In this document: positions 3,702 through 61,755 of the stretch, in pieces
Layout: every line of letters begins with the position of its first letter
Numbering within the stretch: position 1 is the first letter of the stretch
NCBI GenBank assembly: GCA_964367355.1
Contig: CAYIWY010000003.1
Coordinates: forward strand, 36,919-100,918
Direction of reading: 5' to 3'
DNA length: 64,000 nt
DNA from: an uncultured Gammaproteobacteria bacterium
GTDB lineage: Bacteria > Patescibacteriota > Microgenomatia > Woykebacterales > RBG-16-39-9b
Position numbers and translations under genes: made by a program
Notes under the pieces: generated by a model
Told to the model about the DNA's origin: nothing
The model's database searches: none
The model's input: the letters and a program-made list of their open reading frames with translations, nothing else

Positions 3702-3782
3702 ATATCTCTTACTGACGTAGACTTAATTAGTTAACGAGAATTTTAGAAATAGTTCTAAGCAGTTAATTGGCAAAAAGTATTT

Positions 3783-5135
3783 ATGGAAACGGAACCAAAT
3801 AGTTTAACAGAAGGACAACCTGCACCTAATAACGAAAACTCAAGTCCAGATTCAGTACAACCAAGTGCCGATATTGGAGCTAGTCTCGACAAGACTCGAA
3901 GCGATTCTGCGTTTGCCGCACAAATTAAAGATCAAGAAGAAAAGGACCGAAACCGAATTGCAGAATTGAGGAGTAGATTAGGTGTTGTTAATACACCAGA
4001 AAATAAAGCAGATTATGAAGAGCCGGTTACTAAACCTATTGAAAAGAGTCAAACAATCGAACCGACACAATTCGGTGTTGCTCATGTTCCGGGAGAGAAA
4101 TTACCGGAAGATCACCCACTAAACCAGCGGGAAAGCTTTAGTTATACAAAAGAGGGTCCCAAATTTACAGATGTATTAAGTGACTCAATAGATCGGGACA
4201 ATGTACTTTCTTCAAAAGAAAGTGATATTTACCCAAAACCTCCTATAAGGACTTTTACTGAAAGAGAAGGTTTGGCTGATTTAAATAAATTTTTAGACAA
4301 AACAATTGAATTAGCTACTCAAAAAGGTAATAAAAAGGTTGAAGAAACCGTCCGCGTTTTTAAAAGGGATTTAGTTTATATTGGTGAGCCCGAACTAAAA
4401 GAAGCCTTGCAAAGTATGGCGTCAGGGATTGTTTCTTCAGCTGAAAACGGCGAAAATGTTTATTTGTATATTTCTGGAAAAAGAAGTGAGCGTTATATCT
4501 CCTTAAGAATTTTGGAAGAGGTTGATCAACTAACTACTGAAAATTCACAACTGCGACAAAGGATTCATTTTTCTGAAAACCCAGCGGCAATTTCCAAGGC
4601 TTTGAAAGAGAGTGGAGGTCGCGGCAAAGCTATTGTCGTTGATGACTTTTCAGTTAGTGGTACGCGTATCGACGCTGCTGCCACAAATGCTTTTCGAGGT
4701 TTAGTTCAAGCTGGGTTTTCACCCGAAGAGGCAAGCAGAAGGATTGAAATTAATCTGATTGCTGACAAAACCAATCGAAGTAATCGGGGAGAAGGACATC
4801 ACGTTAGTGCTGCTATGACCGGAGAAAAGTTTGACTATCCGATTAAAACCTCGGCTTATTATGGAATTTCTGAGAGTCGAAAAAATGATGGTAGCTTAAA
4901 TGTCTTTACGGGGATGAGTGTTAGTGGAAGTCATAGTTCGACTGATTATGGATATGAAAATGTGCTAGACGAGTTTTGGCACTTTCAAATTGATAGCGGA
5001 GGAACTTCAAAAATGCCGCTGTTGCACAGTTTAAACAGGCCTTACGAAATGGAAGGTTACAGTGGGAATTATTACAAAGATAAGCAACTACAAGCAAGAT
5101 GGAACATGATAATGCACAAATATCAGCTTAGATAA
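3783..5135 (+). CDS. Hypothetical protein with disordered N-terminal region and a phosphoribosyltransferase-like motif
   Basis: AIVVDDFSVSGTRI matches the type I PRTase PRPP-binding loop (hhhhDDhhxTGxT), as in ComFC-like proteins. The rest is unassigned. Confidence 0.3.
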   Translation: METEPNSLTEGQPAPNNENSSPDSVQPSADIGASLDKTRSDSAFAAQIKDQEEKDRNRIAELRSRLGVVNTPENKADYEEPVTKPIEKSQTIEPTQFGVAHVPGEKLPEDHPLNQRESFSYTKEGPKFTDVLSDSIDRDNVLSSKESDIYPKPPIRTFTEREGLADLNKFLDKTIELATQKGNKKVEETVRVFKRDLVYIGEPELKEALQSMASGIVSSAENGENVYLYISGKRSERYISLRILEEVDQLTTENSQLRQRIHFSENPAAISKALKESGGRGKAIVVDDFSVSGTRIDAAATNAFRGLVQAGFSPEEASRRIEINLIADKTNRSNRGEGHHVSAAMTGEKFDYPIKTSAYYGISESRKNDGSLNVFTGMSVSGSHSSTDYGYENVLDEFWHFQIDSGGTSKMPLLHSLNRPYEMEGYSGNYYKDKQLQARWNMIMHKYQLR

Positions 5136-5178
5136 TCTCAGTGCAGTTGAATATTAGTGGAGTAACCAACAGGTTAAA

Positions 5179-6396
5179 TTAAGTTGAAGAAGTTGGAGTT
5201 TTCAGCATTTCAAAAGGTTTGAGGAGATCTTTTTCGGTACCAACTCTGAGTTTTATTTCTGCTTCAGTCTCGAAATTTTTCGGGTTGTGTTCAAAATAGC
5301 TGGCTAAGTTTAAGCTTGAGCGTAGGGTACCTAGGGCAACAATTACTCTTCCTTCTTCCTCCCGACCTTCTCTAGCATACGAAGCAATCATTTCTTTATC
5401 AAACGCTTCCTGGAACACAGGATTGTTCCAAGCACGGGCCCGCATATTGCCAAAATCATAAGCAGCTGCAAGCACTTCGTTTTGACTTATTCCCGCCCAT
5501 TCGAAATCCAGTCCGATAAATTTGTCACTGGCAAGGCCATCGCCGAGAAAAATATTGTTGGGGGCAAAGTCACCGTGGACAACGTGCTCTCCTTTTCCCT
5601 GATTTCGCTCGATAACCGGGCTAACTTGTTCGAGTAGTTGATCGATTCTTTGCACTAGGTCTGGGGTCTTGGTTTTTTCCGCCATTAGAGCAGCAAATAC
5701 ATGTTTTTCGGGAGAAAAATCATCTTCCGTACCGCTCACTTGTCGCGAGAGAATTTTTACTAGATTGGCCCGAAAACCAATATAATCGCTAAAAGCGGCC
5801 TTCTTGTCCAGAACCGCCCTTACTTCCGGGGTTAGTTTTTCTTCCTGATGACTCAGATCTCTAATGGCTTTAACAGCTTCGATTGCGTGCTCAGCAGTCA
5901 ATTCCTTGCTATCCTCGATAGTATACAAAAAGCCGACACCCTCACCTTTTTGATACCAGTTCATAACTGCATACATTGGTCCTTGAGCCTCTTGTGTATT
6001 GGTGTCAAGAACTTCCGTTACCGGAAAGTCAGTCCGCTCGTCCAAATAGTCTTGAACTTTGATTTGGCGAATGAAAAATTCCTTATGCTTCGCTTCTTTG
6101 ACTTGGTCAGGATCTGGAAGCGGGGCTTTAAAGAATCTTTCTTTCAGTAGTAGGCGATTGTCGGTTTCGTTTTGGTCAAATTCAACAACATGGAGTCTCA
6201 TATATCTATCACCGTGAATCTGTGTGTTCCAATCGTCCTGTGAATAAAAAAGATGGTGTTTCTCCAGTATTTTTTTAATATCACTTTCCCATTTTTCCTT
6301 TTTAACTTCGAAGGGGGATTTTTCAATGGGAATGTATGTTTCCGAAGGTTTTGAAGAAGTGTTAGTCGGCTCTGGTTTTGGAGCTTCTTGAGCCAT
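5179..6396 (-). CDS. APH/choline-kinase-like phosphotransferase (protein kinase-like fold)
   Basis: Catalytic loop HGDFAPNNIF (Brenner HxDxxxxN motif) followed by LDFEWAG (DFG-equivalent). Confidence 0.6.
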   Translation of the reverse strand: MAQEAPKPEPTNTSSKPSETYIPIEKSPFEVKKEKWESDIKKILEKHHLFYSQDDWNTQIHGDRYMRLHVVEFDQNETDNRLLLKERFFKAPLPDPDQVKEAKHKEFFIRQIKVQDYLDERTDFPVTEVLDTNTQEAQGPMYAVMNWYQKGEGVGFLYTIEDSKELTAEHAIEAVKAIRDLSHQEEKLTPEVRAVLDKKAAFSDYIGFRANLVKILSRQVSGTEDDFSPEKHVFAALMAEKTKTPDLVQRIDQLLEQVSPVIERNQGKGEHVVHGDFAPNNIFLGDGLASDKFIGLDFEWAGISQNEVLAAAYDFGNMRARAWNNPVFQEAFDKEMIASYAREGREEEGRVIVALGTLRSSLNLASYFEHNPKNFETEAEIKLRVGTEKDLLKPFEMLKTPTSST

Positions 6397-6509
6397 TGGA
6401 GGTGGAGATTCGAGAACACTAGTTTCAGACCATTAACTAAATCATAGAGACCCTCTGGTCTGAAATCAACCTTTAGACCAGGTTCGAGATAAAAGTTGTT
6501 TAGTAGTAA

Positions 6510-6842
6510 CTAACTTGGGTTTTCGGGAAGGTTCTTCTCCTTAGCTTTTTCACGCTCGTAATCTGCCTCGAAAGTTTCAATAAAAGCATCTAGGGCTAGA
6601 TCGCCAATTTCCTCAACATTTTTGCCAGTTCGTTGTTCGTAAAGTTTTGCAATCAATAGATTGACCTCTTCCTCTTTTGCTGCTTCGATTTCAGCCAAAT
6701 CTTCTTCAGTCAAAGCAGCGATAATCTCCATATGAGCCTTTTGAGCAATAGTATTGTTGAGGTTTGTCACAAATTCACCAATTTGGTCTTCCTTCAAACC
6801 CTCTTTTTTCAAAATTTCCAAAACACTATCAAGTTTATTCAT
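6510..6842 (-). CDS. Small acidic protein (candidate chaperone or immunity partner of the upstream 826-aa protein)
   Basis: 110 aa, Glu/Asp-rich, predicted helical; overlaps the 826-aa gene by 8 nt on the same strand. Confidence 0.4.
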   Translation of the reverse strand: MNKLDSVLEILKKEGLKEDQIGEFVTNLNNTIAQKAHMEIIAALTEEDLAEIEAAKEEEVNLLIAKLYEQRTGKNVEEIGDLALDAFIETFEADYEREKAKEKNLPENPS

Positions 6843-9315
6843 TAATTAGTTCCTCAGCGATTTCTTCAGATGCCCTTCTTTCAAAGAAATCAGTTATATC
6901 AGCAATATCGTTAAGCGAAAGAATCTTAAGTTTTTGGTTGACTGGAATCCAGTCTAAGCTAGTTTGCAGGTCATGAAACGCACCAGCATCACCACCTCGA
7001 GCGTGTTCTATTAAAGCGAGAACTTCTTGTTGGGTTGGAAAGTTGTTTGTGGCTAGACCAGATTCAACCATACGATTGTGCGTTTCAGCTAGCAGCTGAT
7101 GATTGGCAAGAATATGACCGCCAAAAAGATCTGCGTCAGCACTTGTCCAAGTAACTCTGTGCCCGTTATTTTGCAGGAGAGTTGAGACAGTATCTCCTTG
7201 ATGAATGTCGACCAAGTTACCAACATCTGCACTTGTCAAAGTATCGATCAGCGGGTTGGTATCAATACCAACTTCTGCCAAACGTCCAGCTTCATACAGC
7301 CGACCAACATCCGACCATTGTTCACTGGTGAGTGATGTAAAGGTTTTCCAGGCTTCAGGGTCCTGATGGATTCGATTAATCAGATCGATTTGATCTTGAG
7401 AAAGAGGTGGTAGACCTTCGGGTAAGGACGTTTCGAGATTACCTACATTAGGTGAATCTGGACCACCGTTTAGTTTATGCTCTACAAATTTATCAATATC
7501 GAAGAATTGATTGGTAATTCCTTGGGTAATTGCACCAACTTTCATCCCGGCGGAAAAACTTCGAATCCGTTCGTTGGCTTTACTGTATTTGAAAACTTTG
7601 TTTTGAAGTTCTTGGGTGAGTGTTTCAACGATCGGGTCGAAGGAATCTTTTTCGCTATAACCCATCCGGGACAATAAATCTTGGGAAATGCGGGTCATCT
7701 TTGTTTGGTATTCGGTTAAACCACTCGTTTTCAGAAGACGACTGGCTCGGTCGTATTGGTCTCTATAACTTCGAACGTCGATAGATTTAAGGCCCTCTTC
7801 ACTTAAATTGTTGACGTTTTGTCTAATGCTTCGCTCAATACCGCGAAGTCTTAGTGAGTTGACCCCGCTTGAAAGCAGATGCGTGACAGCGGTCGTTCCA
7901 ACTGAATTAATCAGGCTGCCGGCACCTGGAAGTACCAGATTAAGTGCGGTGTTGGTAGTGAAACCAGTGGCAATACCAGCTGCCCAGGCAACTTTGTCTT
8001 TGTCACGCCAATCAAAGTTATTGAGGTAGCGCTGCGCACTTTCATAAACAAAATTACCGCCTGGAGTTTTCAAAGCAACTGCGCGGGCAACTTCGGCAAC
8101 TTTTACTCTGGCAGTTTCGGCTACGGAGAAAATACGACTTGCATGAGACGGTTTATCTTTCTCTGATTCAGGTTCAGTAGGATCGCTATTCTTAACTTTA
8201 TCCACAAATTCCTTGATTTTACTATCAAGCTCGTCAGCTTTACCTGCTTGGCTTTCAGCCATCAACCGATCCATCTCAGAGGAAGTAAGTTGTACTTTTG
8301 AATCTGTATTGGCTTTTGGTTGTTCAGTTGGGGTTGTTGGATTAACTCCTTCAGGCCTTTCTTTAGGCGGATTTGCATTTTGTCTTTCGAGAAAACTGCG
8401 CGCGTATTCAATTTCTTGTTCGGGGGTGAGTAATATTTCCCGACCATCTCCAGTGGTATAAACTCTATATTTTTGTCCAAGCTCGTGTTCCCTTTGTTCG
8501 GAAAATCTTAAGTCCCCCAGCAGCTCACCCGAATGGGTTATTTCAGAGACTAGATTATGAGCTGAAGTTGTGAGTGGATCCTGGTCGATCTTTTCCGGTT
8601 CCGACAGAGTTTGTATTGAAGGGGGCTCTGCAGTTTCTGTTGTCGCAGCCACCAGTGCTTCTCGTTCAACTGCCTGTCTTTGTACCTCAGAGTTAATAAG
8701 ACTACTTAGATCTCCAGAAACATCTTCCGCTTGTCGGTGTTGGCTTTCATCTGGAGGTGCAATGGTTTGAGGAGATATTAAAGTTTCGACTTGACCAGGG
8801 TTGCTAGCGAAGTGTTCCATTGTTTCACGTGGTCCCAGAGCTTCTATTTCTTCAGGTGTAAGGCCTTGCTGGGGGAGAAGGATTGCTTTGGCAAATCTGA
8901 CTGCCTCGAGGTCGGCTTTGCCGGTTTGTCTGAAATTATTGACTGTGGTTTGAAATTCGGCTAACTCGTCCCTACGTTGGGAATTATTTTCCTTTCCCGA
9001 AGGTGGGGGGCCAGGAATTTCTGGGGTTTCGTCGTTTGGACTAGCAGAGTGTACAACTGATGTTTCTGGTCGAGCATCGATTCTGGTTGCATTTAGTCCA
9101 CTATGGCGTTCTAGCTCTTCCTGAGTTGGAAAATCAGTGATATTTGGTGGTCGTTCCCCTCCACCACGATGTAAGCGGTCTTGATCAGAACGGTCTGAAA
9201 TTTGTGCAGGATCAGCTCGAGAAGGAGCACGTTCTTGTACCTCGTTTTGGTTTGAGAAACTGTCCCCGCCAGAAGGAGCGTTTTCTGAAAAAGGAGAATT
9301 TTCGGCAGAATTCAT
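6835..9315 (-). CDS. Large hypothetical protein (826 aa) with low-complexity N-terminal third and a Gly-rich hydrophobic hairpin
   Basis: Long ORF. N-terminal ~330 aa is Pro/Ser/Glu-rich and disordered. Internal AWAAGIATGFTTNTALNLVLPGAGSLINSVGTTAVTHLL is a glycine-zipper-like hydrophobic segment. No recognisable catalytic motif. Confidence 0.5.
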   Translation of the reverse strand: MNSAENSPFSENAPSGGDSFSNQNEVQERAPSRADPAQISDRSDQDRLHRGGGERPPNITDFPTQEELERHSGLNATRIDARPETSVVHSASPNDETPEIPGPPPSGKENNSQRRDELAEFQTTVNNFRQTGKADLEAVRFAKAILLPQQGLTPEEIEALGPRETMEHFASNPGQVETLISPQTIAPPDESQHRQAEDVSGDLSSLINSEVQRQAVEREALVAATTETAEPPSIQTLSEPEKIDQDPLTTSAHNLVSEITHSGELLGDLRFSEQREHELGQKYRVYTTGDGREILLTPEQEIEYARSFLERQNANPPKERPEGVNPTTPTEQPKANTDSKVQLTSSEMDRLMAESQAGKADELDSKIKEFVDKVKNSDPTEPESEKDKPSHASRIFSVAETARVKVAEVARAVALKTPGGNFVYESAQRYLNNFDWRDKDKVAWAAGIATGFTTNTALNLVLPGAGSLINSVGTTAVTHLLSSGVNSLRLRGIERSIRQNVNNLSEEGLKSIDVRSYRDQYDRASRLLKTSGLTEYQTKMTRISQDLLSRMGYSEKDSFDPIVETLTQELQNKVFKYSKANERIRSFSAGMKVGAITQGITNQFFDIDKFVEHKLNGGPDSPNVGNLETSLPEGLPPLSQDQIDLINRIHQDPEAWKTFTSLTSEQWSDVGRLYEAGRLAEVGIDTNPLIDTLTSADVGNLVDIHQGDTVSTLLQNNGHRVTWTSADADLFGGHILANHQLLAETHNRMVESGLATNNFPTQQEVLALIEHARGGDAGAFHDLQTSLDWIPVNQKLKILSLNDIADITDFFERRASEEIAEELINE

Positions 9316-15898: not shown

Positions 15899-16001
15899 AA
15901 TTTTTCAAAGCAGCGCCTAGTATAACATTGGTGAGAAAAAAAGGCTAGAGTACTCTAAACGAGGTTCAAAATCAATAGTTGACAAAAAATTTCAATTAGC
16001 T

Positions 16002-16076
16002 ACTTTGCGAAGCAATGTGAGTGAAGTGATACTTTGCGAAGCAATGTGAGTGAAGTGATACTTTGCGAAGCAATGA
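16002..16076. repeat. Tandem direct repeat, 29-bp unit x 2.6 (ACTTTGCGAAGCAATGTGAGTGAAGTGAT)
   Basis: Two perfect and one partial unit; no spacers, so not CRISPR. Lies in the secA upstream region. Confidence 0.9.
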
Positions 16077-16135: not shown

Positions 16136-16170
16136 AACCCCGACTCTGCAAAGAGCCGGGGTCTTTTTTT
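16136..16170 (+). terminator. Rho-independent terminator-like hairpin just upstream of the RAYT gene
   Basis: AACCCCGACTCT-gcaa-AGAGCCGGGGT + CTTTTTTT; preceded by TTGACA-16-TATTAT. IS200-family left ends are known to carry such terminators. Confidence 0.5.
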
Positions 16171-16211
16171 CCTTTGACAAAATTCTACCCCAGGGGTATC
16201 CTGTCTATAGG

Positions 16212-16784
16212 ATGAGCACCCCTATTAGACATTTTCAACAAAATAGTTACTATCACGTTTTTAATAGAGGTAACCACAAAAGTGACATTTTTCTCAATCC
16301 GTACGATTATTTACGGTTTCTTGAAAAAATTGAAGAATATAAGGATAAATGTCAGATAAAAGTTTTGTGTTTCTGTTTAATGCCGAATCATTTTCATTTA
16401 CTTTTGCAACAACTCAGTGACATACCGTTGACTAAATTTATGCTTTCTCTATCAACAAGTTATTCAAAGTACTTCAATATTAAATATGACCAGGTTGGGA
16501 GACTGTTTCAGGAAAGATTTAGAGCGGTTGAAGTCACTACTGATGAATATTTGTTGTATCTTACAAAATATATTCATCTTAACCCAACTAAACTTAAAGT
16601 TGATATTACAAAATATAAATGGTCCAGTTTAAATAATTACATTGATTATAGCGAATGGGATTTTGTTGAACCTGAACCTATTCTCAACTATTTTTCACAA
16701 ATAAATCCGAAAAAAGATTATTTGAATTTTGTGTTGGAAAATATATCAAATGTTGTTGGAGTTGAGAAGTTGTTAATCGATTAG
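16212..16784 (+). CDS. REP-associated tyrosine transposase / IS200-like TnpA (Y1 HUH)
   Basis: YHVFNRGN ... CLMPNHFHLLLQ (HUH motif) ... LTKYIHLNP (catalytic Tyr region), collinear with RAYT family. Confidence 0.8.
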   Translation: MSTPIRHFQQNSYYHVFNRGNHKSDIFLNPYDYLRFLEKIEEYKDKCQIKVLCFCLMPNHFHLLLQQLSDIPLTKFMLSLSTSYSKYFNIKYDQVGRLFQERFRAVEVTTDEYLLYLTKYIHLNPTKLKVDITKYKWSSLNNYIDYSEWDFVEPEPILNYFSQINPKKDYLNFVLENISNVVGVEKLLID

Positions 16785-16866
16785 TCTTATAATGTTGCTA
16801 CCCCTGGGGTTGAGCGGGATGTTGTTGGGCTTTGACACAACCTTTCAGTTTAAGTAATCTTATAGA

Positions 16867-17627: not shown

Positions 17628-18614
17628 ATGAAGATCCCTCCTTCGTATACAGTTACTCCAGAAATGCTGGGGTTTATTGCCAAAATTGAAGCTGAGCGAT
17701 TGCATATTGCATCCCTTACCCTCCCAAAACCTCTAAAAGAAAAAATCCAAAGAGTTAGCCTTTTAAAAAGCTCTCTTTTTTCAGCTCGTATTGAAGGAAA
17801 CCCACTTAAACTTGCAGATGTTGACACAGGAAATAAAAAATCCCAAAAGAAAATAGAAGTATTCAATATCACAAAAGCAATAAGGTTTATAGATGGTCAT
17901 GTAAGAAAAGGTGATCTAAAGATTGATACTCTTTTACAGATTCACATGCTGGTTCTCAAAAATCTAAGTCCTGGTGCCGGTCACATAAGAGCCACGGCAA
18001 GTGCGATTTTCAACCAGGCTGGTGTTGCCGTTTACATGCCACCGCCACCTCGTTCTATTTCAAAGTTGCTAGACGATTTACTCTTCTTTGTTAACTCGGA
18101 TACGGAAAAGTTTCCTCTTATAGCCGCTTTTGTTGCTCATCTTGTCTTTGAAAAAATCCACCCTTTTTTAGACGGAAACGGGAGAGTAGGTAGGCTTCTT
18201 ATTTCCTCAATACTAAAATCCCGCGGTTGGGATTTTACTTTCTCCGTACCATTCGAAGAATATCTAGATAACCACAAAGATGATTACTATTTTCACTTGG
18301 ACAAGGGGCAAGTTGATACTAATGATTATTTGCTTTTTATGCTTGAGGCTTTCTGGCAACAAACTCAAACTATAAAAGCTCAAATCGAAGAAGAATTAGC
18401 TCGTGGCGACAAAGTGTTTTTACCTCCAAGGCAGGAGGAGATATACAATGTAATACGCGATCATAAAGTTGTTCCTTTTGATATGATAAGGCGTAGGTTT
18501 GTTAAGGTACCAGAAAGGACGTTGCGATACGATTTAAAGAAACTTTTAGATAGAGAGCTTATTGAAAAAAGCGGAGAAACAAGAGGGCGGTTTTACCGAG
18601 TTAAGAACAAATAG
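17628..18614 (+). CDS. Fic/Doc-family protein (AMPylator-type) with N-terminal inhibitory motif
   Basis: Fic motif HPFLDGNGRVGR; N-terminal SARIEGN matches the [S/T]xxxE[G/N] auto-inhibition helix of class II Fic; C-terminal wHTH-like region. Confidence 0.85.
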   Translation: MKIPPSYTVTPEMLGFIAKIEAERLHIASLTLPKPLKEKIQRVSLLKSSLFSARIEGNPLKLADVDTGNKKSQKKIEVFNITKAIRFIDGHVRKGDLKIDTLLQIHMLVLKNLSPGAGHIRATASAIFNQAGVAVYMPPPPRSISKLLDDLLFFVNSDTEKFPLIAAFVAHLVFEKIHPFLDGNGRVGRLLISSILKSRGWDFTFSVPFEEYLDNHKDDYYFHLDKGQVDTNDYLLFMLEAFWQQTQTIKAQIEEELARGDKVFLPPRQEEIYNVIRDHKVVPFDMIRRRFVKVPERTLRYDLKKLLDRELIEKSGETRGRFYRVKNK

Positions 18615-19613: not shown

Positions 19614-20583
19614 CGAGAAGAAAATTGTTGTTATTGGTGGAGGAACCGGGACTTATACTGTCTTGTCTGGGCTAAAAAAAATTTCTGCCCAAATTACCGC
19701 GGTTGTGACCATGATGGACTCCGGTGGGTCTTCAGGACGTTTGCGCGACGAGTTTGGACAACTTCCAACCGGAGACGTCCGTCAGGCTTTGGTGGCGCTA
19801 AGTAACGACTCTTCCGTAATGCGACAGCTGTTCAATTATCGATACGAAAAAGGGGAAGGTCTGCAAGGACATAGTTTTGGAAACCTTTTTTTAACCGCCC
19901 TTGCTGAGGTAACCGGGGGGATGGAAAATGCCCTACAAGAGGCTGGAAGAATTTTGAATATTAAAGGCAGTGTTCTTCCGGTTACATTATCTAATTCCAA
20001 TTTAGTTGCCGAATATGAAAACGGACTGATAGTTAAGGGAGAAAATGATATCGATGTTCCGAAACATGATGGAAAACTTCATATAACGAGACTTTCTTTG
20101 GAGCCAAAAGCAGCACCTTTTGAAAAAACCCTTGCTGCAATCTCCCAAGCAGATTTAATCATTCTTGGTCCAGGGGATATTTATACCAGTTTAATCCCAA
20201 ACCTTGTAGTTCCAAAAGTTGCTGATGCAATTTGTAATTCAAAAGCCAAAAAGGTTTATATTGTTAACCTAATGACAAAGTTTGGCCAAACCTACAATTT
20301 TAAAGCCAGCAATTTTGTCGCTGAAATAGAAAAATATTTAGGAAAATGTTTAGACTATGTTTTGATCAATAATAAAGATTTACCAGAGGCTATTATTGAA
20401 CGTTACAAGGCCGAAAACGATTCTCCAGTGGAAGATGATCTTAACGACTCAAACTACAAAGTTATCAGAGAAGATTTGCTGGCAACCGAACCAATTGAAA
20501 GAAAAGCTGGTGATGTTCTTCAAAGAAGCCTGATTCGTCATGATTCTGATAAACTTTCACAAATACTTACAACTTTAGTTTAA
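19606..20583 (+). CDS. yvcK: YvcK/CofD-like (UPF0052) gluconeogenesis factor family protein
   Basis: VVIGGGTGTYTVLSGLK ... VTMMDSGGSSGRLRDEFG ... PTGDVRQAL. Confidence 0.85.
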   Translation: MINEKKIVVIGGGTGTYTVLSGLKKISAQITAVVTMMDSGGSSGRLRDEFGQLPTGDVRQALVALSNDSSVMRQLFNYRYEKGEGLQGHSFGNLFLTALAEVTGGMENALQEAGRILNIKGSVLPVTLSNSNLVAEYENGLIVKGENDIDVPKHDGKLHITRLSLEPKAAPFEKTLAAISQADLIILGPGDIYTSLIPNLVVPKVADAICNSKAKKVYIVNLMTKFGQTYNFKASNFVAEIEKYLGKCLDYVLINNKDLPEAIIERYKAENDSPVEDDLNDSNYKVIREDLLATEPIERKAGDVLQRSLIRHDSDKLSQILTTLV

Positions 20584-23040: not shown

Positions 23041-23179
23041 ATACCAAGTTATTCGCGAAGATTTGTTAGCTGCTGAACCAATTGAAAGAAAAGCTGGGGA
23101 TGTGTTGCAAAGAAGCCTGATTCGGCATGATAGTGAAAAGTTAGCTAAAGTAATATCTAGATTCCCTTTAGTTGTTTGA
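23041..23179 (+). pseudogene. Diverged duplicate of the yvcK 3' end (fragment 1)
   Basis: Translates YQVIREDLLAAEPIERKAGDVLQRSLIRHDSEKLAKVI..., ~85% nt identity to 20455-20583 (VIREDLLATEPIERKAGDVLQRSLIRHDSDKLSQILTTLV*). Confidence 0.75.
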
Positions 23180-23292: not shown

Positions 23293-23916
23293 TTACAGAT
23301 TACTAAGTTTCTTAACTTCACTCCTCAATCTTTTTTTTACCTCTTCGAAAGCAATACCATTATTATTTTTAAATATTATTTTCTCCTGCATAACATCTTC
23401 AAAATAAACCAGGCTTTTCAAGATCAAGTTCCTGTCTAATTGGGGGTATTTCCTACGAGCCTTATCTAAGAGATCAGATAGTGAAAAAATCTTTAAAATA
23501 AAATACAGGTCAATGTAATCCTTGTTACTTGCTCTTGTGGTGATGGCCGATAACTTCATGCAACCGATATCTGCTATTCCAGCATAAGTTATATTTTCAT
23601 CACTAATGGTTTCATCGATTAATTTATATTTATAAGTAAAAAAGCTTATCTTTACTGAGTCATCAATTAGCACTGTTAGCGTATTGTTTTCTTCTTGTAT
23701 TTTTAATAATTTATACCCTTCAAAAAATTTTCTTAATCGTTCAAATAATCTTGCAGTATGTATGTCTCCATCGCTAAAAAAATCAAAGTCTAGACTGTCT
23801 CGATGCCCTATTTGTAAAGCTAGGGATGTCCCGCCAGCAAGGTAGAAATCATTCTTAAAATTTTTAAAAAGAGGTAGGAGGTCGAGTCTTTTTTTATCTA
23901 AAATAGTGTAAAACAT
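23293..23916 (-). CDS. AbiEii/AbiGii-like nucleotidyltransferase (putative toxin)
   Basis: LAGGTSLALQIGHRDSLDFDFF matches the GGTAL...R.S.DiDf N-terminal signature of DUF1814/AbiEii; paralog of 41422-42084. Confidence 0.5.
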   Translation of the reverse strand: MFYTILDKKRLDLLPLFKNFKNDFYLAGGTSLALQIGHRDSLDFDFFSDGDIHTARLFERLRKFFEGYKLLKIQEENNTLTVLIDDSVKISFFTYKYKLIDETISDENITYAGIADIGCMKLSAITTRASNKDYIDLYFILKIFSLSDLLDKARRKYPQLDRNLILKSLVYFEDVMQEKIIFKNNNGIAFEEVKKRLRSEVKKLSNL

Positions 23917-37574: not shown

Positions 37575-37844
37575 ATGTCAAAAGTAAGTGCAAGAGTAAT
37601 CGGTGTTACTAAAATAACCTCCAAGGGTCAGGTGACTATACCGCAGTCTATTCGACGTAGCCTGTCTTTGAAGACGGGCGACAGTCTTGTAGTTGATCTG
37701 GAAAAAAATAAAGTTAATTTGACACCCCTACCAAGAAAATCACTTGAGGAAATTTACGGTAGTTTGCCGGTTCAGGAACCCATTAACTTCAAAAAAGTAA
37801 GAAAAGCATTTAAGGAAGAAGTAGCCAAAAGGCATTCTCGGTAG
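37575..37844 (+). CDS. AbrB/MazE/SpoVT-type antitoxin
   Basis: KITSKGQVTIPQSIRRSLSLKTGDSLVVDL: swapped-hairpin AbrB-type motif. Confidence 0.65.
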   Translation: MSKVSARVIGVTKITSKGQVTIPQSIRRSLSLKTGDSLVVDLEKNKVNLTPLPRKSLEEIYGSLPVQEPINFKKVRKAFKEEVAKRHSR

Positions 37845-37847
37845 GGT

Positions 37848-38261
37848 ATGAAGAAGTATTTATTGGATACTAATATTTTCTTAAGGTTTTTGACTAAAGA
37901 CGATCCAATAAAATCAGAAAAAATCTTAGCGTTTTTTCAAAAGGCGGAAAGAGGAGATATCAAACTTAGTACTTCAGATTTGATTGTAGCCGAAGTAGTT
38001 TGGGTACTTACTTCAAAAAAACTTTTCAATTTCTCGAGGAAACAAATTTACGACAGTTTTCTTCCACTTCTCCTAAAAGACTACTTAGAAATATCGTCTA
38101 AGGTAATGTTGCTGAAGATATTTGATTTGTTTATTGAAAAAAGTATTGATTTCATTGATTGTTATAATGCTGTTTTGGTTGGTGAATCAAACGAAAGGTT
38201 TATTTTGAGCTATGATGGGGATTTTGATAAAGTACCTTTCGTTGTGAGGGTTGAGCCTTGA
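37848..38261 (+). CDS. PIN-domain toxin (VapC-like)
   Basis: MKKYLLDTNIFLRFL... Confidence 0.7.
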   Translation: MKKYLLDTNIFLRFLTKDDPIKSEKILAFFQKAERGDIKLSTSDLIVAEVVWVLTSKKLFNFSRKQIYDSFLPLLLKDYLEISSKVMLLKIFDLFIEKSIDFIDCYNAVLVGESNERFILSYDGDFDKVPFVVRVEP

Positions 38262-38340
38262 AAGTAAGAACCTTCTCACATTCGTTCGAAGAACCCTGCA
38301 TTCACAAAATGAAAATAGCTCATAGAAACAGAGGAGCCTT
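38262..38340 (+). promoter_or_regulatory. Conserved ~80-nt upstream element, copy A (AAGAACC ... AAGAACCCTGCATTC, start codon 50 nt downstream)
   Basis: Aligns position-for-position with 45344-45422 and 60939-61017, including fixed distance to the start codon. Confidence 0.5.
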
Positions 38341-39474
38341 GTGAAAATTGGAATCGACGCTCGATTTTTAGGACCAGACGGGACTGGAATTGGGCGCTAC
38401 GTTGAAAAATTGCTGGAAAATTTGGAAAAACTCGATACTCAAAACGAGTATTTTGTTTTCCTGCGAAAAAGTAACTTTCCGCTTTACAATCCAAAAAACA
38501 GAAACTTCACAAAAGTAACCGTTGACGCTCACTGGTACTCCTTAAAAGAGCAGGTGATAATGCCGGCTGTTTTGAATAAATTAAAACTTGATTTAGTCCA
38601 TTTTCCTCATTTCAATATCCCACTTCTTTACAGCGGCAAGTTTTTGGTCACTATCCACGATTTGACTAAGACAAAATTTGGTCGGGGAGCTGCCAGTTCT
38701 AAGAGCCTACCTGTTTATTGGACAAAAAATAATATTTATAAATTTACGATCAACCAAGCACTGAAGCGGGCAGAGAGAATCTTGGTTCCCAGTAATTTTG
38801 TTAAAAATGAAATTGCCAAGGAAAACAAAAATTTGGAAAGAAAGATTACAGTCACCTACGAAGCAGCTGATGATTTTGCCAATAATCATGTTGAGCCAAG
38901 CGAGGGTCGGGTTAAAGAAATTTACAATAAATTTGGGATAAGAGAGCCGTTTATTATTTATGTTGGTAATACCTATTCTTACAAAAATGTTCAGATTATT
39001 CTTGAAGCACTGCCAAAACTTGACCAAAATATAAAATTTGTTTGTGTTTCATCTAGGAATTCTCAATTGGAAGCGCTAATTCATAAAGCACAAAGTTTGG
39101 GGTTGAAAGATCGACTAATCACAACCGGATACCTTAGTGACCAGGATTTGGGAATACTTTTTTCTCAAGCAGTTTGTTTTGTGTTCCCATCCTTGTCCGA
39201 GGGTTTTGGCTTAACCGGGCTTGAAGCCATGGCTAGCGGTTGTCCGGTGATTGCTGCAAAAGTAAGTAGTTTACCGGAGGTTTACGGCGAAGCCGCCCTT
39301 TACTTTAATCCAAAATCTGACAAAGACTTAGCGGAAAACATAAACGAGCTTCTTAAGAATAAATTGTTAAGGTCTAAAATGGTCGAGAAAGGGCTAAAGA
39401 AGGTCAGAGAATATTACTGGCGAGATACTGCCAGGCAAACATTGTCTGTCTATAAAGAAATTTTAGGTCAGTAG
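38341..39474 (+). CDS. GT4 glycosyltransferase
   Basis: GTG start; FPSLSEGFGLTGLEAMASGCPVIAAKVSSLPEVYG. Confidence 0.85.
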   Translation: MKIGIDARFLGPDGTGIGRYVEKLLENLEKLDTQNEYFVFLRKSNFPLYNPKNRNFTKVTVDAHWYSLKEQVIMPAVLNKLKLDLVHFPHFNIPLLYSGKFLVTIHDLTKTKFGRGAASSKSLPVYWTKNNIYKFTINQALKRAERILVPSNFVKNEIAKENKNLERKITVTYEAADDFANNHVEPSEGRVKEIYNKFGIREPFIIYVGNTYSYKNVQIILEALPKLDQNIKFVCVSSRNSQLEALIHKAQSLGLKDRLITTGYLSDQDLGILFSQAVCFVFPSLSEGFGLTGLEAMASGCPVIAAKVSSLPEVYGEAALYFNPKSDKDLAENINELLKNKLLRSKMVEKGLKKVREYYWRDTARQTLSVYKEILGQ

Positions 39475-41224: not shown

Positions 41225-41425
41225 ATGAACATGTACAATTGGTCTACGGATACAAAAACTCTATCTAAATACCCCGATAAATATGCAGTCTGGAAACTAG
41301 AACAACTTATTAATTTGGGTCTTAATGGTCAGACACTAGATCCTAAAGAGCTTAAAAAATACTTTAATCAATTACAGATTGATCCGCAAAAAAAGAAATA
41401 TCTCATGTTTCTAATTTCTCAATGA
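41225..41425 (+). CDS. Small partner protein of AbiEii-like NTase (putative antitoxin)
   Basis: 66 aa, 4-nt overlap with downstream NTase; paralog of 23919-24188. Confidence 0.4.
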   Translation: MNMYNWSTDTKTLSKYPDKYAVWKLEQLINLGLNGQTLDPKELKKYFNQLQIDPQKKKYLMFLISQ

Positions 41426-42084
41426 AAAATGCAAGCATTCTAACAAAGACTCAAAAGCTTTTTTTAGAACTTTTTGGTAAACAACCTTTTTCCCAAAAAT
41501 TTTATCTTTCCGGAGGTACAGCTCTTACGACTTTTTATATCCCTTATAGATATTCTGAAGATCTAGATTTTTTTAGCGATCAAGAAATACAAATTGATGA
41601 AGTAATAGCATTTATTAGCTCCATAAAAAAGCCGCTTGGATTTACTGTCTTTGATTTTAATACTAGTTTTAATCGTAATCTCATTTTTTTACACCTCCCT
41701 AAGGATCAACTCAAGCTTGAGTTTACCTATTATCCTTTCACCCAGCTAAATACTCCGAAAGAAGAGTTTGGAATAAAAATAGATAGTATTGAAGATATAG
41801 CAATAAATAAACTTTTTACTATTTACCAAAATCCCAGAAGTAGAGATTTTACCGATTTATTTATGATTATTAAAAAGTACGGTTTTAGTATAGGAGATTT
41901 AGTTAAAAAAGCTAAGATTAAATTTGATTGGCATGTAGACCCTTTAAAACTTGGTTCTCAATTTATTTTAGTTGATGATTTAAAAGACTATCCAAGGATG
42001 ATTGAGCCGATAAAAGAAACAGATTGGCAAAATTTCTTTAAAGAAGAAGCAAAAAAACTCAAAAGAGATATTATGAAACCTTAA
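41422..42084 (+). CDS. AbiEii/AbiGii-like nucleotidyltransferase
   Basis: LSGGTALTTFYIPYRYSEDLDFF matches the DUF1814 signature. Confidence 0.5.
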   Translation: MKNASILTKTQKLFLELFGKQPFSQKFYLSGGTALTTFYIPYRYSEDLDFFSDQEIQIDEVIAFISSIKKPLGFTVFDFNTSFNRNLIFLHLPKDQLKLEFTYYPFTQLNTPKEEFGIKIDSIEDIAINKLFTIYQNPRSRDFTDLFMIIKKYGFSIGDLVKKAKIKFDWHVDPLKLGSQFILVDDLKDYPRMIEPIKETDWQNFFKEEAKKLKRDIMKP

Positions 42085-43108: not shown

Positions 43109-43372
43109 ATGAAAAGATATCAGGTTTATCTTAACCCCAAAGCAGTGTCAGTACTTGATGAATTTGAGAAGCACGCTTCTGTTTCCAGATCAAAACTCAT
43201 CCGAGAGGCAATTGACAGATTAGCCTTGAATTTAGCTAAAACATTTACCGAAAAGGGAATTGCCCCTAAAGACAGGTTGATTTTAGATTCACTAATTGGG
43301 AAGATTAATACTGGTAGTCTAAAACAAACCAACTACGCCTTAAAAGATGACAGTTCGTACCTAAGAGATTGA
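43109..43372 (+). CDS. Ribbon-helix-helix antitoxin
   Basis: YQVYLNPKAVSVLDEFEKHASVSRSKLIREAIDRL. Confidence 0.6.
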   Translation: MKRYQVYLNPKAVSVLDEFEKHASVSRSKLIREAIDRLALNLAKTFTEKGIAPKDRLILDSLIGKINTGSLKQTNYALKDDSSYLRD

Positions 43373-43785
43373 TGAAAGTATTTTTTGACACTGGAGTTTT
43401 CATTGCCCTTTTTGTTTCCCAGGAGAAATATCACAAGCAAGTTGCTAAGGAGTATGACTATTATCGTCAGCAAAGAGCTCAATTTTACACCTCTTATTAC
43501 ATACTTGATGAACTATTTACCCGATTAGTATATGACTTCGGTTCTAAAGAAACCGAAAAAGTTATCAATCTGTTTGTAAAATCCCTGGAAAAAGAAGAAA
43601 TAAAAGTGCTAGATATCGATGAAGAAACTTTTAAAAAATCATTAACTATTTTGTTAAAATTTTCCGAGCACAAAGTTTCCCTAACTGATGCAACCACATA
43701 CACTCTTTTTAAGGACTTAGAACTCGACGAAGTGTTCACGTTGAACAGCGACTTTAAGAAAATAGGATTAAAAACCTCGTTTTAG
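43369..43785 (+). CDS. PIN-domain toxin (VapC-like)
   Basis: MMKVFFDTGVFIALF ... LTDATTYTLF. Confidence 0.7.
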   Translation: MMKVFFDTGVFIALFVSQEKYHKQVAKEYDYYRQQRAQFYTSYYILDELFTRLVYDFGSKETEKVINLFVKSLEKEEIKVLDIDEETFKKSLTILLKFSEHKVSLTDATTYTLFKDLELDEVFTLNSDFKKIGLKTSF

Positions 43786-45097: not shown

Positions 45098-45343
45098 AAA
45101 TAAAACCCAATAAGTACTGAGCAGTAAATTGATTATACATTAGATAAAAATTGTCAGAGATATATAATGTCGTACAATATTTGATAACAAAATGTTTTCG
45201 CTCAGCTCTTTTTAAGTCCTTTTACTCCTCTCATTTGGCTGTTAAGTGACTTTAGGCTATAATCTCGCCAGAGATTACATCAGGCGAGTTTGTATCAGCA
45301 AAGCCTGATATAATAACGCCTATGTCTAATTCAAGAGAACTGA

Positions 45344-45422
45344 AAATAAGAACTTTTTCGTCCGAACTCAAAAAACCTTGCATTCATAAATTAGAATTTA
45401 CTGATAGAAATGGATGTAATTT
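45344..45422 (+). promoter_or_regulatory. Conserved ~80-nt upstream element, copy B
   Basis: ATAAGAAC...AAAAACCTTGCATTC...50 nt...ATG; collinear with copies A and C. Confidence 0.5.
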
Positions 45423-46574
45423 ATGAAAGTGGCGCTCGTCCATGATTTCTTAAATCAATACGGAGGTGGAGAGCGAGTGATTGAACAATTGGCTGAGATC
45501 TGGCCGGAAGCAAATATTTACACCAGTTTGTATGATCGAGACTTGATGAAGAACTGGTTAAAAATTGATCCAAGTCGAATTAAGACCAACTTTATCAGCA
45601 AGCTTCCTTTTGCAAATTATCTTTCCAAACATTATTTTTTTCTTTATCCTCTAGCATTCCGAATGCAAAATCTAGGGGACGCGGACATAATTTTCAGTAC
45701 TTCTTCTTACGCGGCAAAATTTGCGCGTGGAAAAAAAGGCTCGATTCACATTTGTTATCTCCATACGGTTCCGAGGTTTCTTTGGGGTTACGATACCGAG
45801 CTCTCCGGATATTACCGCCGATCCTTTGATCGAGTTCTTGCGCCAATATATAAACTAGTCGTTCCGATAGCGAAATTCTTTTTGAAAAAAGCTGATTTTG
45901 CGGCTGCCCAAAAAATTGATTATTTTATTGTCAATTCGAACGAAGTTAAAAAGCGCTTAGTTAAACATTACAAACGGGACGGAATTGTAATCTATCCCCC
46001 GGTCGATACCAAAAGATTTACAGAAGAGTTAAGAGTTAAGAGTGTAGAGTTAGGAGTTAAAAAAGAGGACTATTATTTAATTGTTTCACGTCTAAGTGGT
46101 TATAAAAAAATTGATATTGCTGTTCACGCTTTTAACAAACTCGGAAAAAGATTAAAAATTGTTGGCGATGGTCCGCAGATGGCCTATTTAAAATCAATTG
46201 CGGCACCAAACGTAGAAATTTTGGGAAGAGTTGCTGACGAAAAGGTTACACAACTAGTAAAAAATTGCAAAGCATTTGTTTTCCCCGCACTTGAAGATTT
46301 TGGGATCGTAGTTGTCGAGGCCGAAGCAGCCGGAAAGAGCGTTATTGCTTATGGGCAAGGTGGGGCAACCGAGACCGTAGTCGAAGGAAAAACAGGTTTG
46401 TTCTTTCAAGAACAGACGCCAAAGTCTATAATAGAAGCAGTCAAAAAATTTGAGACCATGAAATTTGATCCGGAAGACTGTCGCAAGCAAGCGGAGAAAT
46501 TTTCAGAAAGTGTGTTTAAGAAAAATATGATTGAATTTGTAAATAAAGTTGTTAAAGAAAGGAAACTACAATGA
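45423..46574 (+). CDS. GT4 glycosyltransferase
   Basis: FPALEDFGIVVVEAEAAGKSVIAYGQGGATETV. Confidence 0.8.
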   Translation: MKVALVHDFLNQYGGGERVIEQLAEIWPEANIYTSLYDRDLMKNWLKIDPSRIKTNFISKLPFANYLSKHYFFLYPLAFRMQNLGDADIIFSTSSYAAKFARGKKGSIHICYLHTVPRFLWGYDTELSGYYRRSFDRVLAPIYKLVVPIAKFFLKKADFAAAQKIDYFIVNSNEVKKRLVKHYKRDGIVIYPPVDTKRFTEELRVKSVELGVKKEDYYLIVSRLSGYKKIDIAVHAFNKLGKRLKIVGDGPQMAYLKSIAAPNVEILGRVADEKVTQLVKNCKAFVFPALEDFGIVVVEAEAAGKSVIAYGQGGATETVVEGKTGLFFQEQTPKSIIEAVKKFETMKFDPEDCRKQAEKFSESVFKKNMIEFVNKVVKERKLQ

Positions 46575-59663: not shown

Positions 59664-60938
59664 ATGAAAGAAAGGATTCCACAGCCTGCAAAAAATATTT
59701 ATCATTTAGTTATTGCATTTATTTCAGCTCTAATCTTTCGTTTTCCGGCCTTTCGATTACAAGTGATTGGAGTTACTGGAACAGATGGAAAAACTACTAC
59801 AGTTAGTTTGATTTACCATATTCTTAGTACACTCGGAATGAAAGCCGGAATGATCTCGACTGTTGAAGCCAAATTCGGAGGTAAAAGCTTTGAAACTGGT
59901 TTTCACGTCACGACCCCAAGTTCGTTTTTAATTCAAAAATTTCTAAGAAAGATGGTCGATAATAAAATAAAAGTTGTGATTTTAGAAATTACTTCGCACG
60001 GCCTTGATCAAAATCGAGTAGCTTTTGTGCCACTTCACACAAGTTTGATTACCAATGTTTCACAGGAGCACTTGGATTACCACAAAAACTACAAAAATTA
60101 TTTACTCACCAAAGCAAAGATTTTAAGAAATGTAAATTATCGAGTATTAAATTCTGAGGATCAGTCTTTCGAGATGCTGAAAATGTTAGGTTCCGGACAG
60201 TTAGTTGCTTTTGGAAAACTTGGCTCTGATTATTTTGGCGAAATAATAAATAGTGATGGGTTTTCAACAAATTATGCGATTCATTACAAAACTAAACAAA
60301 AATTACTCAAAACTATGGTAGTTCAAAGTAACCTAATCGGTGAGTTTAACCTTTCAAATATCTTGGCGGCTTTTGCAGTTTGTAAGATTTTAGGTTTGGA
60401 AGACAAGAAGATTTTAAGTGCGATCGAGACTTTTACTGGGGTTCCGGGAAGGATGGAACAAGTTGATTTGGGACAAAATTTTAAGGTTGTGGTTGATTTT
60501 GCTCATACCCCAAGGTCGCTTGAGTTAGCGCTTTCTGCTTTAAGAGGAAATACTGAGAAAAAATTAATCTGTGTTTTTGGGGCGGCGGGTGAGCGGGATA
60601 AGAGTAAACGTCTCCTTATGGGTCAGGTGGCGGCTAATCTTGCTGATTTGATAATTTTGACAAGTGAAGATCCGAGAAGCGAAAACCCGGAAAAAATAAT
60701 TGCTGAAATTGCCAGAGGAATTGAGAAAGTTGGTGGAGAAGAAAATACAAATTATTGGAAAATTGTTGATCGAGTCGACGCTATCAACAAAGCAGTTGGC
60801 AATTTAGCAGAAGTAGGTGATACAGTCGTAATTTTGGGAAAAGGTCATGAGCAAAGTATGAATATAGGCGGAAAAGAAATCCCTTGGGATGACAAAAAAG
60901 TCGCGACCGAATCTTTGAAAATGAGGCTTGGGATATGA
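59664..60938 (+). CDS. murE: UDP-MurNAc-tripeptide synthetase MurE (short form)
   Basis: Mur ligase P-loop GVTGTDGKTTT; DAP-recognition-like EDPRSENP (DNPR-equivalent); 424 aa. Confidence 0.7.
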   Translation: MKERIPQPAKNIYHLVIAFISALIFRFPAFRLQVIGVTGTDGKTTTVSLIYHILSTLGMKAGMISTVEAKFGGKSFETGFHVTTPSSFLIQKFLRKMVDNKIKVVILEITSHGLDQNRVAFVPLHTSLITNVSQEHLDYHKNYKNYLLTKAKILRNVNYRVLNSEDQSFEMLKMLGSGQLVAFGKLGSDYFGEIINSDGFSTNYAIHYKTKQKLLKTMVVQSNLIGEFNLSNILAAFAVCKILGLEDKKILSAIETFTGVPGRMEQVDLGQNFKVVVDFAHTPRSLELALSALRGNTEKKLICVFGAAGERDKSKRLLMGQVAANLADLIILTSEDPRSENPEKIIAEIARGIEKVGGEENTNYWKIVDRVDAINKAVGNLAEVGDTVVILGKGHEQSMNIGGKEIPWDDKKVATESLKMRLGI

Positions 60939-61017
60939 AAATAAGAACCTTTTCGCGTTTCTCAAAGAACCTTGCATTCGCAAGCAATTTCTATCTAAGT
61001 AAGACTGGGGGTGGTTT
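60939..61017 (+). promoter_or_regulatory. Conserved ~80-nt upstream element, copy C
   Basis: AATAAGAACC...AAAGAACCTTGCATTC...51 nt...GTG; immediately after the murE stop. Confidence 0.5.
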
Positions 61018-61755
61018 GTGAAAGTTGGAGCGATTATCTTAGCGGCTGGATCCGGAACCCGGTTAAATAGTGGTAATCCGTCAGATAAGCCAAAGGTTCT
61101 TTATGAACTTAACAAAAAACCAATGGTTGAATACACTCTTGATTTACTTGATCAGTTGAGTATTTCTGAAAAAGTTATGGTGGTTGGGTATAAAGAAGAA
61201 CTTGTCCGGGAATATTTTGGAGAAAGAGTAAAATACGTGTCACAACCCGAAAGGAAAGGAACCGGTCACGCTGCCAAACTTGGGGAGGAAAAATTGGATC
61301 CAAGTATAACCCACTTATTGATTATCCAAGGTGATGATAGTTCTTTTTATAAAGTCGAAACTATCCAAAAATTTATTGCTGACTGTGCAGATTGTAAGAT
61401 GGGATTTACAACTGTGAAACTTACTGAACCGGCGCAATACGGTCGGGTAATTAGAAACTCGGAAGGCGAAGTCTGCGCAATTGTTGAAAAAGAATCGTTA
61501 ACAGAAGAGCAAAAAAAAATTAATGAAGTAAATGCTGCCACATATTTTGTCAAAAGAGATTGGTTTAACACTGTTTATCCGATCTTAAAACCAAGTGCCG
61601 TCGGAAAAGGTGAGATAATTATGCCGGATTTAATCGCGGTTGCTGCCACCTCAGGGGGAAAAGTTATTGGTTTTGAAGTTCCTGTCGCAGAGTGGGTTGG
61701 TGTCAATACACCAGCGGAATTAGAACGGGCTGATAAACTAAAAAGAGAAAGCTAA
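61018..61755 (+). CDS. Sugar-phosphate nucleotidyltransferase (GlmU N-domain-like / MurU-like), no acetyltransferase domain
   Basis: GTG start; AIILAAGSGTRLNSGNPSDKPKVLYELNKKPMVEYTLD (GxGTRx nucleotidyltransferase signature); 245 aa. Confidence 0.6.
   Translation: MKVGAIILAAGSGTRLNSGNPSDKPKVLYELNKKPMVEYTLDLLDQLSISEKVMVVGYKEELVREYFGERVKYVSQPERKGTGHAAKLGEEKLDPSITHLLIIQGDDSSFYKVETIQKFIADCADCKMGFTTVKLTEPAQYGRVIRNSEGEVCAIVEKESLTEEQKKINEVNAATYFVKRDWFNTVYPILKPSAVGKGEIIMPDLIAVAATSGGKVIGFEVPVAEWVGVNTPAELERADKLKRES

Follow-up and report, generated by a model that had tools for sequence, protein, structure and literature searches.

Genomic setting and the three copies

The window examined here, the whole stretch of 64,000 nucleotides, belongs to a Patescibacteria (CPR) genome from groundwater; proteins identical to its own are found in Hainich aquifer assemblies, and the homologues carry names such as Patescibacteria and Woykebacteria. 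It contains a glycan and cell-wall gene cluster densely interleaved with toxin–antitoxin and defence-like genes (37575-38261, 43109-43785, 23293-23916, 41422-42084 and 17628-18614); these comprise a MazE/PIN pair, a second PIN pair, two AbiEii-like genes and a Fic gene. At 20455-20552 and 23042-23139, the 3′ end of a CofD-like gene is duplicated as a direct repeat of 98 nt (83% identity); between the two lie about 2.6 kb of small toxin–antitoxin-like ORFs, and the arrangement looks like an integrated islet with att-like duplications. At the left end (134-9315), large ORFs of 881, 450, 405 and 826 aa, with no Pfam match but a weak one to TraG-D_C, could belong to an element involved in conjugation or secretion. 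In a related sequence with 85% GT4 glycosyltransferase identity (L093:1263-9976; L093 and L008 share a contig), an island takes the place of the sequence upstream of the GT4 gene; it carries an N6/N4 methyltransferase, a ResIII helicase and, directly against the GT4 start, a phage-type integrase.

An earlier note on this DNA had described three copies of an element of about 80 nt, aligning position for position and each lying upstream of a cell-envelope gene. All three are present and the alignment holds. The downstream genes are also as described, namely two GT4 glycosyltransferases and an NTP-transferase located between two Mur ligases. Of the two conserved boxes that the note defined in the element, box 2 (AAGAACCYTGCATTC) is found in the window with 0–1 mismatch only at 38289, 45371 and 60965. 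A position-weight scan of the window gave the three copies 25–28 bits and every other site at most 16 bits, while a covariance model scored them at 83–99 bits (E ≤ 3e-12) and the rest of the window at no more than 14 bits.

The extent of about 80 nt is roughly correct, the actual conserved unit being slightly larger and running from TGAAA to TGAAA. This pentanucleotide bounds each unit on both sides (38259/38342, 45341/45424 and 60936/61019) with a period of exactly 83 nt in all three window copies—an insert of 83 bp made up of 78 bp and the 5-nt TGAAA direct repeat. Copy 1 (38259-38346, + strand; 82.9 bits) has its left TGAAA at 38259-38263, which holds the stop codon TGA of a PIN-toxin gene, and its right TGAAA at 38342-38346. 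Copy 2 (45341-45428, + strand; 89 bits; TGAAA at 45341-45345 and 45424-45428) lies within the former N-terminal coding region of a GT4 gene, after codon 7. Copy 3 (60936-61023, + strand; 99 bits) is situated between murE and the NTP-transferase gene of the dcw cluster, with the murE stop in its left TGAAA (60936-60940) and the right TGAAA at 61019-61023. The left TGA is thus the upstream gene's stop codon in copies 1 and 3. In each copy the base before the right TGAAA is G or A, so that the downstream gene starts with GTG or ATG. Every copy is co-oriented with both of its neighbouring genes, on their coding strand. Tandem Repeats Finder detected no tandem arrays at the three window loci, and the relatives carry single units throughout. 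With one further locus in the relative L094, four insertion sites are known, all before sugar or peptidoglycan genes.

At copy 1 only, the 8-nt sequence GAGCCTTG stands right before both TGAAA junctions (38253-38260 and 38334-38341), a doublet that could reflect a longer duplication or a conversion event there. Longer target duplications were rejected as a general feature: this doublet and the Shine–Dalgarno (SD)-like left flank of copy 3 are inconsistent across copies, and the target gene's original SD is the best explanation for them.

An open reading frame through every copy

Overlooked in the earlier note is the fact that the whole unit forms an open reading frame in every copy. This frame, which we term the relay ORF, has 28 codons when read from the codon ending in the left TG, and it begins at the gene's former start codon or at a codon further upstream in the gene. 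The TGA that ends this frame shares bases with the new start codon of the downstream gene, as GTGA or ATGA (−4 spacing) in all copies, and an SD sequence (AGGAG, GGAGG) is positioned 7–9 nt upstream of this codon. On the left, the frame likewise overlaps the upstream stop in copies 1 and 3, as TTGA and ATGA. Upstream of the relay ORF are the target gene's own initiation signals or, in L096 and L099, an AAGGA of its own.

In copy 1, the relay ORF (38258-38344, + strand) begins with a TTG overlapping the PIN stop (TTGA), encodes (M)KVRTFSHSFEEPCIHKMKIAHRNRGAL in 28 codons, and ends in a TGA overlapping the GT4 GTG at 38341 (GTGA); it is the sole open frame. In copy 3 (60935-61021, + strand) an ATG overlapping the murE stop (ATGA) opens 28 codons (MKIRTFSRFSKNLAFASNFYLSKTGGGL), with the TGA overlapping the GTG at 61018. 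The relay ORF of copy 2 (45322-45426, + strand) runs from the GT4 gene's original ATG at 45322, which is probably leaderless, through 34 codons (MSNSRELKIRTFSSELKKPCIHKLEFTDRNGCNL) to a TGA overlapping the new ATG at 45423 (ATGA). Relative to copies 1 and 2, the copy-3 relay ORF has a compensated −1/+1 frameshift, which places box 2 in a different frame.

The joining frame is open in all eight copies (three in the window and those of L007, L009, L096, L094 and L099), and neither of the remaining frames is open in any of the seven copies tested (three in the window, L007, L009, L096 and L094). In shuffles, the probability of an open frame was 0.09–0.19 per copy and about 3e-4 over four distinct lineages. 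The fixed distance of 50–51 nt to the start codon, on which the earlier note had laid weight, is present in the three copies and is set directly by the relay ORF and its overlap geometry. Gene callers miss the element, its ORF of 87 nt being shorter than those they report at these loci.

A covarying helix at the new start codon

RNAalifold proposed two helices, and the element probably acts on the mRNA. Helix 1, as seen in copy 3 (60936-60955, + strand), pairs TGAAAA (60936-60941) with TTTTCG (60950-60955) around the loop TAAGAACC, which is box 1; it displays one compensatory pair, GAGAA/TTCTC in L094. Helix 2 is formed by the box 2 tail, TTCACAA, and TTGTGAA, which combines the new start codon with the stop of the ORF. 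In copy 1, TTCACAA at 38301-38307 (+ strand) pairs with TTGTGAA at 38339-38345, that is, the GT4 start codon and relay-ORF stop, and the SD AGGAG (38332-38336) is located between the two arms. In copy 2, TTCATAAATTA (45383-45393, + strand) is perfectly complementary over 11 pairs to TAATTTATGAA (45417-45427), which contains the ATG start. In copy 3, TTCGCAAGC (60977-60985, + strand) pairs with GTTTGTGAA (61014-61022).

Compensatory base changes were looked for in seven sequences, and four pairs of helix 2 have them. Over these sequences 94% of the alignment cells of helix 2 are paired, against 26–55% in slid controls, and its covariation score was reached by 2 of 500 shuffles. The pairing changed from CAC/GTG to CAT/ATG twice independently, in copy 2 and in L096/L099; the covariation is drawn from eight related sequences and two independent events, in a helix that is short and AU-rich. 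Folding energies were no lower than those of shuffled sequences (z −1.8 to +1.4). Helix 2 would mask the new start codon.

The earlier proposal of a 5′-UTR cis-regulatory RNA survives in part: the copies are cis-acting units locked to the start codon, with the start codon in a covarying helix, but a leader shared for envelope control is not supported. Its remark that no known riboswitch or leader could be recognised agrees with Rfam, which gave no match at gathering thresholds over the whole window; in permissive mode the sole match was RAGATH-30, a chance match of 16.6 bits (threshold 59.5).

Gain, loss and decay at orthologous sites

Orthologous element-free sites are found in close relatives for all three loci. 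The copy-1 locus is empty in L094 (L094:1500-1525, AAAAAATGAAAATTGGAATAG), the ortholog there (1510) reading AAAAAATGAAAATTGG with a single TGAAA; although this ortholog is without the element, a paralogous GT4 gene of L094 carries a copy. At the copy-2 locus, the ortholog in L094 reads TATAAT-N7-ATGTCTGATTCGAAACAACCAAAAGTCGCA (protein MSDSKQPKVALVHDY) without interruption, whereas the window reads TATAAT-N7-ATGTCTAATTCAAGAGAAC-TGAAA-[78 nt]-TGAAA-GTGGCGCTC. The uninterrupted GT4 N-terminus (MSDSKQPKVALVHDY and similar) is kept in six relatives. By this comparison, copy 2 was gained.

The original promoter of the copy-2 GT4 gene lies upstream of the element: an extended −10 box, TGaTATAAT (45306-45314, + strand), stands 7 nt upstream of the ATG at 45322, and the same gene has TATAAT-N7-ATG in L094 and TATAAT-N6-ATG in L095. 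TATAAT followed after 6–7 nt by ATG is thus seen at this gene in three genomes (window 45306-45324, L094:4405-4425 and L095:9985-10003), a spacing that suggests the use of leaderless mRNAs in this lineage.

Copy 3 is present in L007, L009, L099 and L096 (NTP-transferase identity of 95, 82, 80 and 79%, respectively). It is absent from L008, where murE and the NTP-transferase gene overlap as ATGA, and from the outgroup L098. A tree of MurE, the NTP-transferase and MurC places L008 within the element-bearing clade in 200 of 200 bootstraps; this nesting among carriers implies a precise loss of the element in L008. In L100 the copy-3 site holds a decayed remnant that lacks box 1 and has its ORF closed, with the SD and GTG intact.

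Empty sites hold one TGAAA, and every copy is flanked by two. The flanking 5-nt repeat could equally be a target-site duplication, a fixed target together with the element's own end, or microhomology, and it could reflect microhomology-mediated gain and loss instead of transposition. Taken together, presence, absence and decay at orthologous sites are more in keeping with an insertion element than with a conserved regulatory leader.

These patterns also bear on the idea that the element is not mobile but an ancient spacer or leader between cistrons, present ancestrally at these loci and deleted time and again in relatives. The copy-3 site is old, being common to lineages down to 79% protein identity, compensated frameshift included, and a precise loss between TGAAA repeats did happen in L008. 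However, the copy-2 site is intact and colinear with the window halves in six relatives, including deeper-branching ones, and an insertion there is far more parsimonious since the alternative entails six precise frame-restoring deletions. Moreover, the window copies are about 70–80% identical in front of non-homologous genes, which requires copying between loci. We accordingly give the ancestral spacer hardly any credence.

Sequence constraint and the leader-peptide alternative

Between the window and L009 the element is 76% identical, and between the window and L096 70%, compared to about 50% for the adjacent gene at its third codon positions; the nucleotide sequence of the element is thus under selection. 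Among copies of the copy-3 type, the variable columns fall 10/10/12 by codon position, with no third-position bias, and this lineage reads box 2 as KNLAF where EEPCIH is read elsewhere. For copies 1, 2 and that of L094, 16 of 60 codon differences are synonymous in the ORF frame, as against 7–8 of 51–54 in the other frames, a mild excess that may reflect some peptide-level selection. Overall, the relay peptide is probably weakly constrained or unconstrained, and it would be the translation of the ORF that matters and not its product.

An internal direct repeat is a further constrained feature. In copy 3 it is AAGAACCTT (60943-60973, + strand; units at 60943-60951 and 60965-60973), and in copy 1 the same repeat appears as AAGAACC at 38266-38272 and 38289-38295. 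It is kept as AARAACY in all eight copies with a spacing of 22–23 bp, about two helical turns. The repeated AARAACY is not explained by a translational coupling model and hints at an additional protein-binding or regulatory function.

Selection on the nucleotide sequence and a start-masking helix are both also what one would expect of a regulatory leader peptide, in which the 28-codon upstream ORF senses by stalling or attenuation and tunes envelope-glycan and peptidoglycan-precursor genes, the sensor being either AARAACY or the peptide (K-I/V-R-T-F-S ... E-E-P-C-I-H-K). Copies 1, 2 and that of L094 share RTFS...(E/K)(E/K)P(C/L)IHK with some synonymous changes, the start-masking helix is typical of such switches, and each of the four known sites stands before a GT4 or GlmU-like gene. 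This last point is weak evidence, as the window itself is rich in envelope genes. Against a leader peptide stand the many other GT4 and Mur genes of the window that are without the element, the gain, precise loss and decay at orthologous sites in close relatives, and the copy-3 lineage, with box 2 in another frame and no third-position bias. Further, a conserved terminator or antiterminator alternative was sought in the copies and not found. On balance, we regard a sensing leader peptide as improbable.

Promoter, operator and regulon readings

The earlier note had offered a shared promoter and operator coordinating envelope glycan synthesis as one explanation of the copies, with TTGCAT as a possible −35 box. 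A relaxed consensus scan of the + strand (16–18 nt spacing) found no sigma-70-like −35/−10 pair in any copy, and canonical TTGACA and TATAAT boxes are seen elsewhere in this genome. Nor is TTGCAT conserved: it is replaced by GTTAAT in L094, TTTGCC in L096 and TTGCAC in L009. The nearest −10-like hexamers would place the transcription start at or past the SD. Promoters of the sigma-54 and ECF sigma-factor types were ruled out by inspection of spacing.

In full, this reading combines a TTGCAT −35 with an operator formed by the AAGAACC repeat, to which a transcription factor would bind and so control an envelope regulon. It draws on the AARAACY repeat, the most conserved feature and one unexplained by the RNA helices, and on the fixed distance to the start codon; that distance is, however, fully accounted for by the ORF and its overlaps. 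The positions of the copies speak against it as well: copy 2 sits downstream of the conserved TATAAT-N7-ATG promoter, inside the former coding region and within a translated region, copy 3 is internal to the dcw operon, and copy 1 directly adjoins a toxin gene's stop codon. Coordination of envelope genes finds no backing in relatives with 75–95% protein identity, where orthologous sites vary in having the element or not, and where it has decayed in one relative. The association with envelope genes is itself weak evidence because all the sites found lie in an envelope-gene-dense region. We consider a promoter with operator very unlikely; the feature is real, and the promoter or regulon reading should be replaced.

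Searches beyond the window

A strict two-box DNA pattern had no match in 185,579 species genomes, so the lineage, or the element in this form, is absent from that genome set. A looser two-box pattern gave 76 matches, all of them single, attributable to chance and in unrelated taxa, with none in Patescibacteria. The pattern scan of metagenomes returned the window's own copy 1 (L091), chance matches (a methyltransferase motif, and a hairpin in L087 and L088) and the pair L089/L092; the scan of viral contigs returned nothing. A concatenated query of the relay peptides came back empty, and a profile search of 1.8 billion representatives gave low-complexity matches only.

The L089/L092 match is a 23-codon ORF, MKKIKAIVRTFSLRERTLQLPIN, between nusG and rplK on a JGI metagenome contig (L089:417-520, minus strand; identical in L092). 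Both boxes are contained in it (TAAGAACCTTTTCG...AAAGAACCTTGCA), and a duplicated 25-nt stretch of the rplK start flanks it. At 26.7 bits (E = 0.03), too weak to count, it could be either distantly related to the element or a chance match.

A probable start-codon insertion that would hand ribosomes on

We think it likely that the copies represent a short, non-autonomous, MIRU-like insertion element that settles at gene starts and carries a relay ORF handing ribosomes on to the displaced gene. The insertion site would be xTG-AAA, xTG standing for a gene's start codon or one of its early codons. Ribosomes initiating at the gene's original signals would read the 28-codon relay ORF through the element; these signals are, for copies 1 and 3, the overlap with the upstream stop together with the old SD, for copy 2 the probably leaderless ATG, and for L096/L099 AAGGA. 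The new GTG or ATG, which would be composed of the element's last base and the duplicated TGAAA, overlaps the TGA of the relay ORF. In untranslated mRNA this start codon is predicted to be paired with the box 2 tail (TTCAC/GTGAA); translation of the relay ORF would melt helix 2 and presumably unmask the start, whereupon the terminating ribosome could re-initiate at the overlapping codon, aided by the SD borne on the element. The displaced gene would in this manner stay expressed and become translationally coupled to what lies upstream. That the element is mobile, beyond gain and loss by recombination, is something we infer; a donor copy, a link to a transposase and terminal inverted repeats were sought for the element and not found.

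If the element is of this kind, it would be a case of MIRU-type start-codon insertion with ribosome hand-on from outside mycobacteria; no earlier description of such an element in Patescibacteria was found in the literature searched. Its evolutionary record would be unusually clean, combining empty sites, an insertion within a gene, a precise loss, a decayed copy and a covarying helix. It would also indicate that a small element can enter essential operons, such as the dcw cluster, of a streamlined genome with the host surviving, and that such elements can impose new translational coupling. For annotation, they would carry the risk of truncated N-termini and of apparent "conserved leaders", and an apparent regulon motif would have to be re-read as the signature of a mobile element.

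Comparison with known systems

IS200/IS605-type and REP/RAYT systems are single-strand systems that employ a Y1 transposase. Non-autonomous derivatives of these resemble the present element in several respects: they are without terminal inverted repeats; they have a fixed pentanucleotide target, the same at the element's 3′ end; they have internal sequences complementary to both junctions, here TTTTC/GAAAA and TTCAC/GTGAA; and they undergo precise loss. A RAYT-like Y1 (IS200-like) transposase gene is indeed present in the window (16212-16784; PF01797 E = 7.5e-14; NF047646 (REP_Tyr_transpos) 51 bits, below the cutoff of 80). In contrast to REP/RAYT systems, the element has no REP-like palindrome. 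The RAYT-like gene is flanked by the inverted sequences ACCCCAGGGGT (16187-16197) and ACCCCTGGGGT (16800-16810); this flanking repeat, ACCCCWGGGGT, has no other copy in the window and is unrelated to the element, so it lends no support to the gene as the element's mobiliser. Just upstream of the gene is a terminator-like hairpin (about 16140-16170), preceded by a perfect 29-nt tandem repeat (16001-16075; TACTTTGCGAAGCAATGTGAGTGAAGTGA, 2.6 copies) between repeated promoter-like TTGACAAAAAAT boxes.

A more far-reaching proposal, which we hold to be a speculative and rather doubtful one, is that the copies belong to a new type of CPR non-autonomous mobile DNA, which would target xTGAAA at the starts of genes by pairing of guide-like TTTTC and TTCAC sequences with both junctions, in a Y1-like manner. 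It would carry an expression-rescue cassette, consisting of the relay ORF, the SD, the start-making base and the masking helix; AARAACY would be bound by a mobilising or regulatory protein, and its insertions would rewire the translational coupling of envelope genes in transcription-factor-poor genomes.

Returning to the relay-ORF insertion that we favour, a second group for comparison is that of the Rickettsia palindromic elements (RPEs) and ORF-bearing MITEs. Like the present element, these are small non-autonomous repeats tolerated in expressed or coding regions, and the ORF they carry keeps the host gene functional (PMC10969869). RPEs differ in being about 150 bp long, palindromic and fused in frame into the host protein (PMC10969869). 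Unlike them, the element described here is out of frame (83 = 3n+2), stops and restarts translation, and has no terminal inverted repeats. The last feature also led us to reject a MITE: the termini do not match, the only correspondence being the internal-to-junction TTCACAA/TTGTGAA.

With respect to translation, there are parallels in engineered bicistronic designs and natural "delivery" uORFs, in which a short uORF ends on the main start and contains its SD, and in which translating ribosomes clear inhibitory structure and re-initiate (PMC12548453). Unlike either of these, the cassette here is a naturally repeated, insertion-polymorphic DNA element.

The closest known analogues overall are the MIRUs (mycobacterial interspersed repetitive units). 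In the summary that a 2025 review gives of them (Supply et al. 1997, via PMC12548453), these are apparently mobile and insert at start codons, with an internal ORF coupled to the gene at −4 spacing. Both they and the present element are short repeats (tens of bp) between co-oriented operon genes and in the same orientation as these; in both, the ends of a small ORF overlap the flanking stop and start codons with −4 spacing; and MIRUs, too, are thought to insert at start codons, the gene being expressed through translational coupling (all as outlined in PMC12548453). The differences concern the host, Mycobacterium as against Patescibacteria, the base composition, which is unlike, and the tandem VNTR arrays of MIRUs, as against single units here. 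Peculiar to the present element in this comparison are the flanking 5-nt TGAAA direct repeat, the covarying start-masking helix, the internal AARAACY repeat and the copy inside a coding region that truncates an N-terminus. The element may hence be viewed as an analogue of the MIRUs, likened to them by organisation and not by sequence, rather than as a member of their family.
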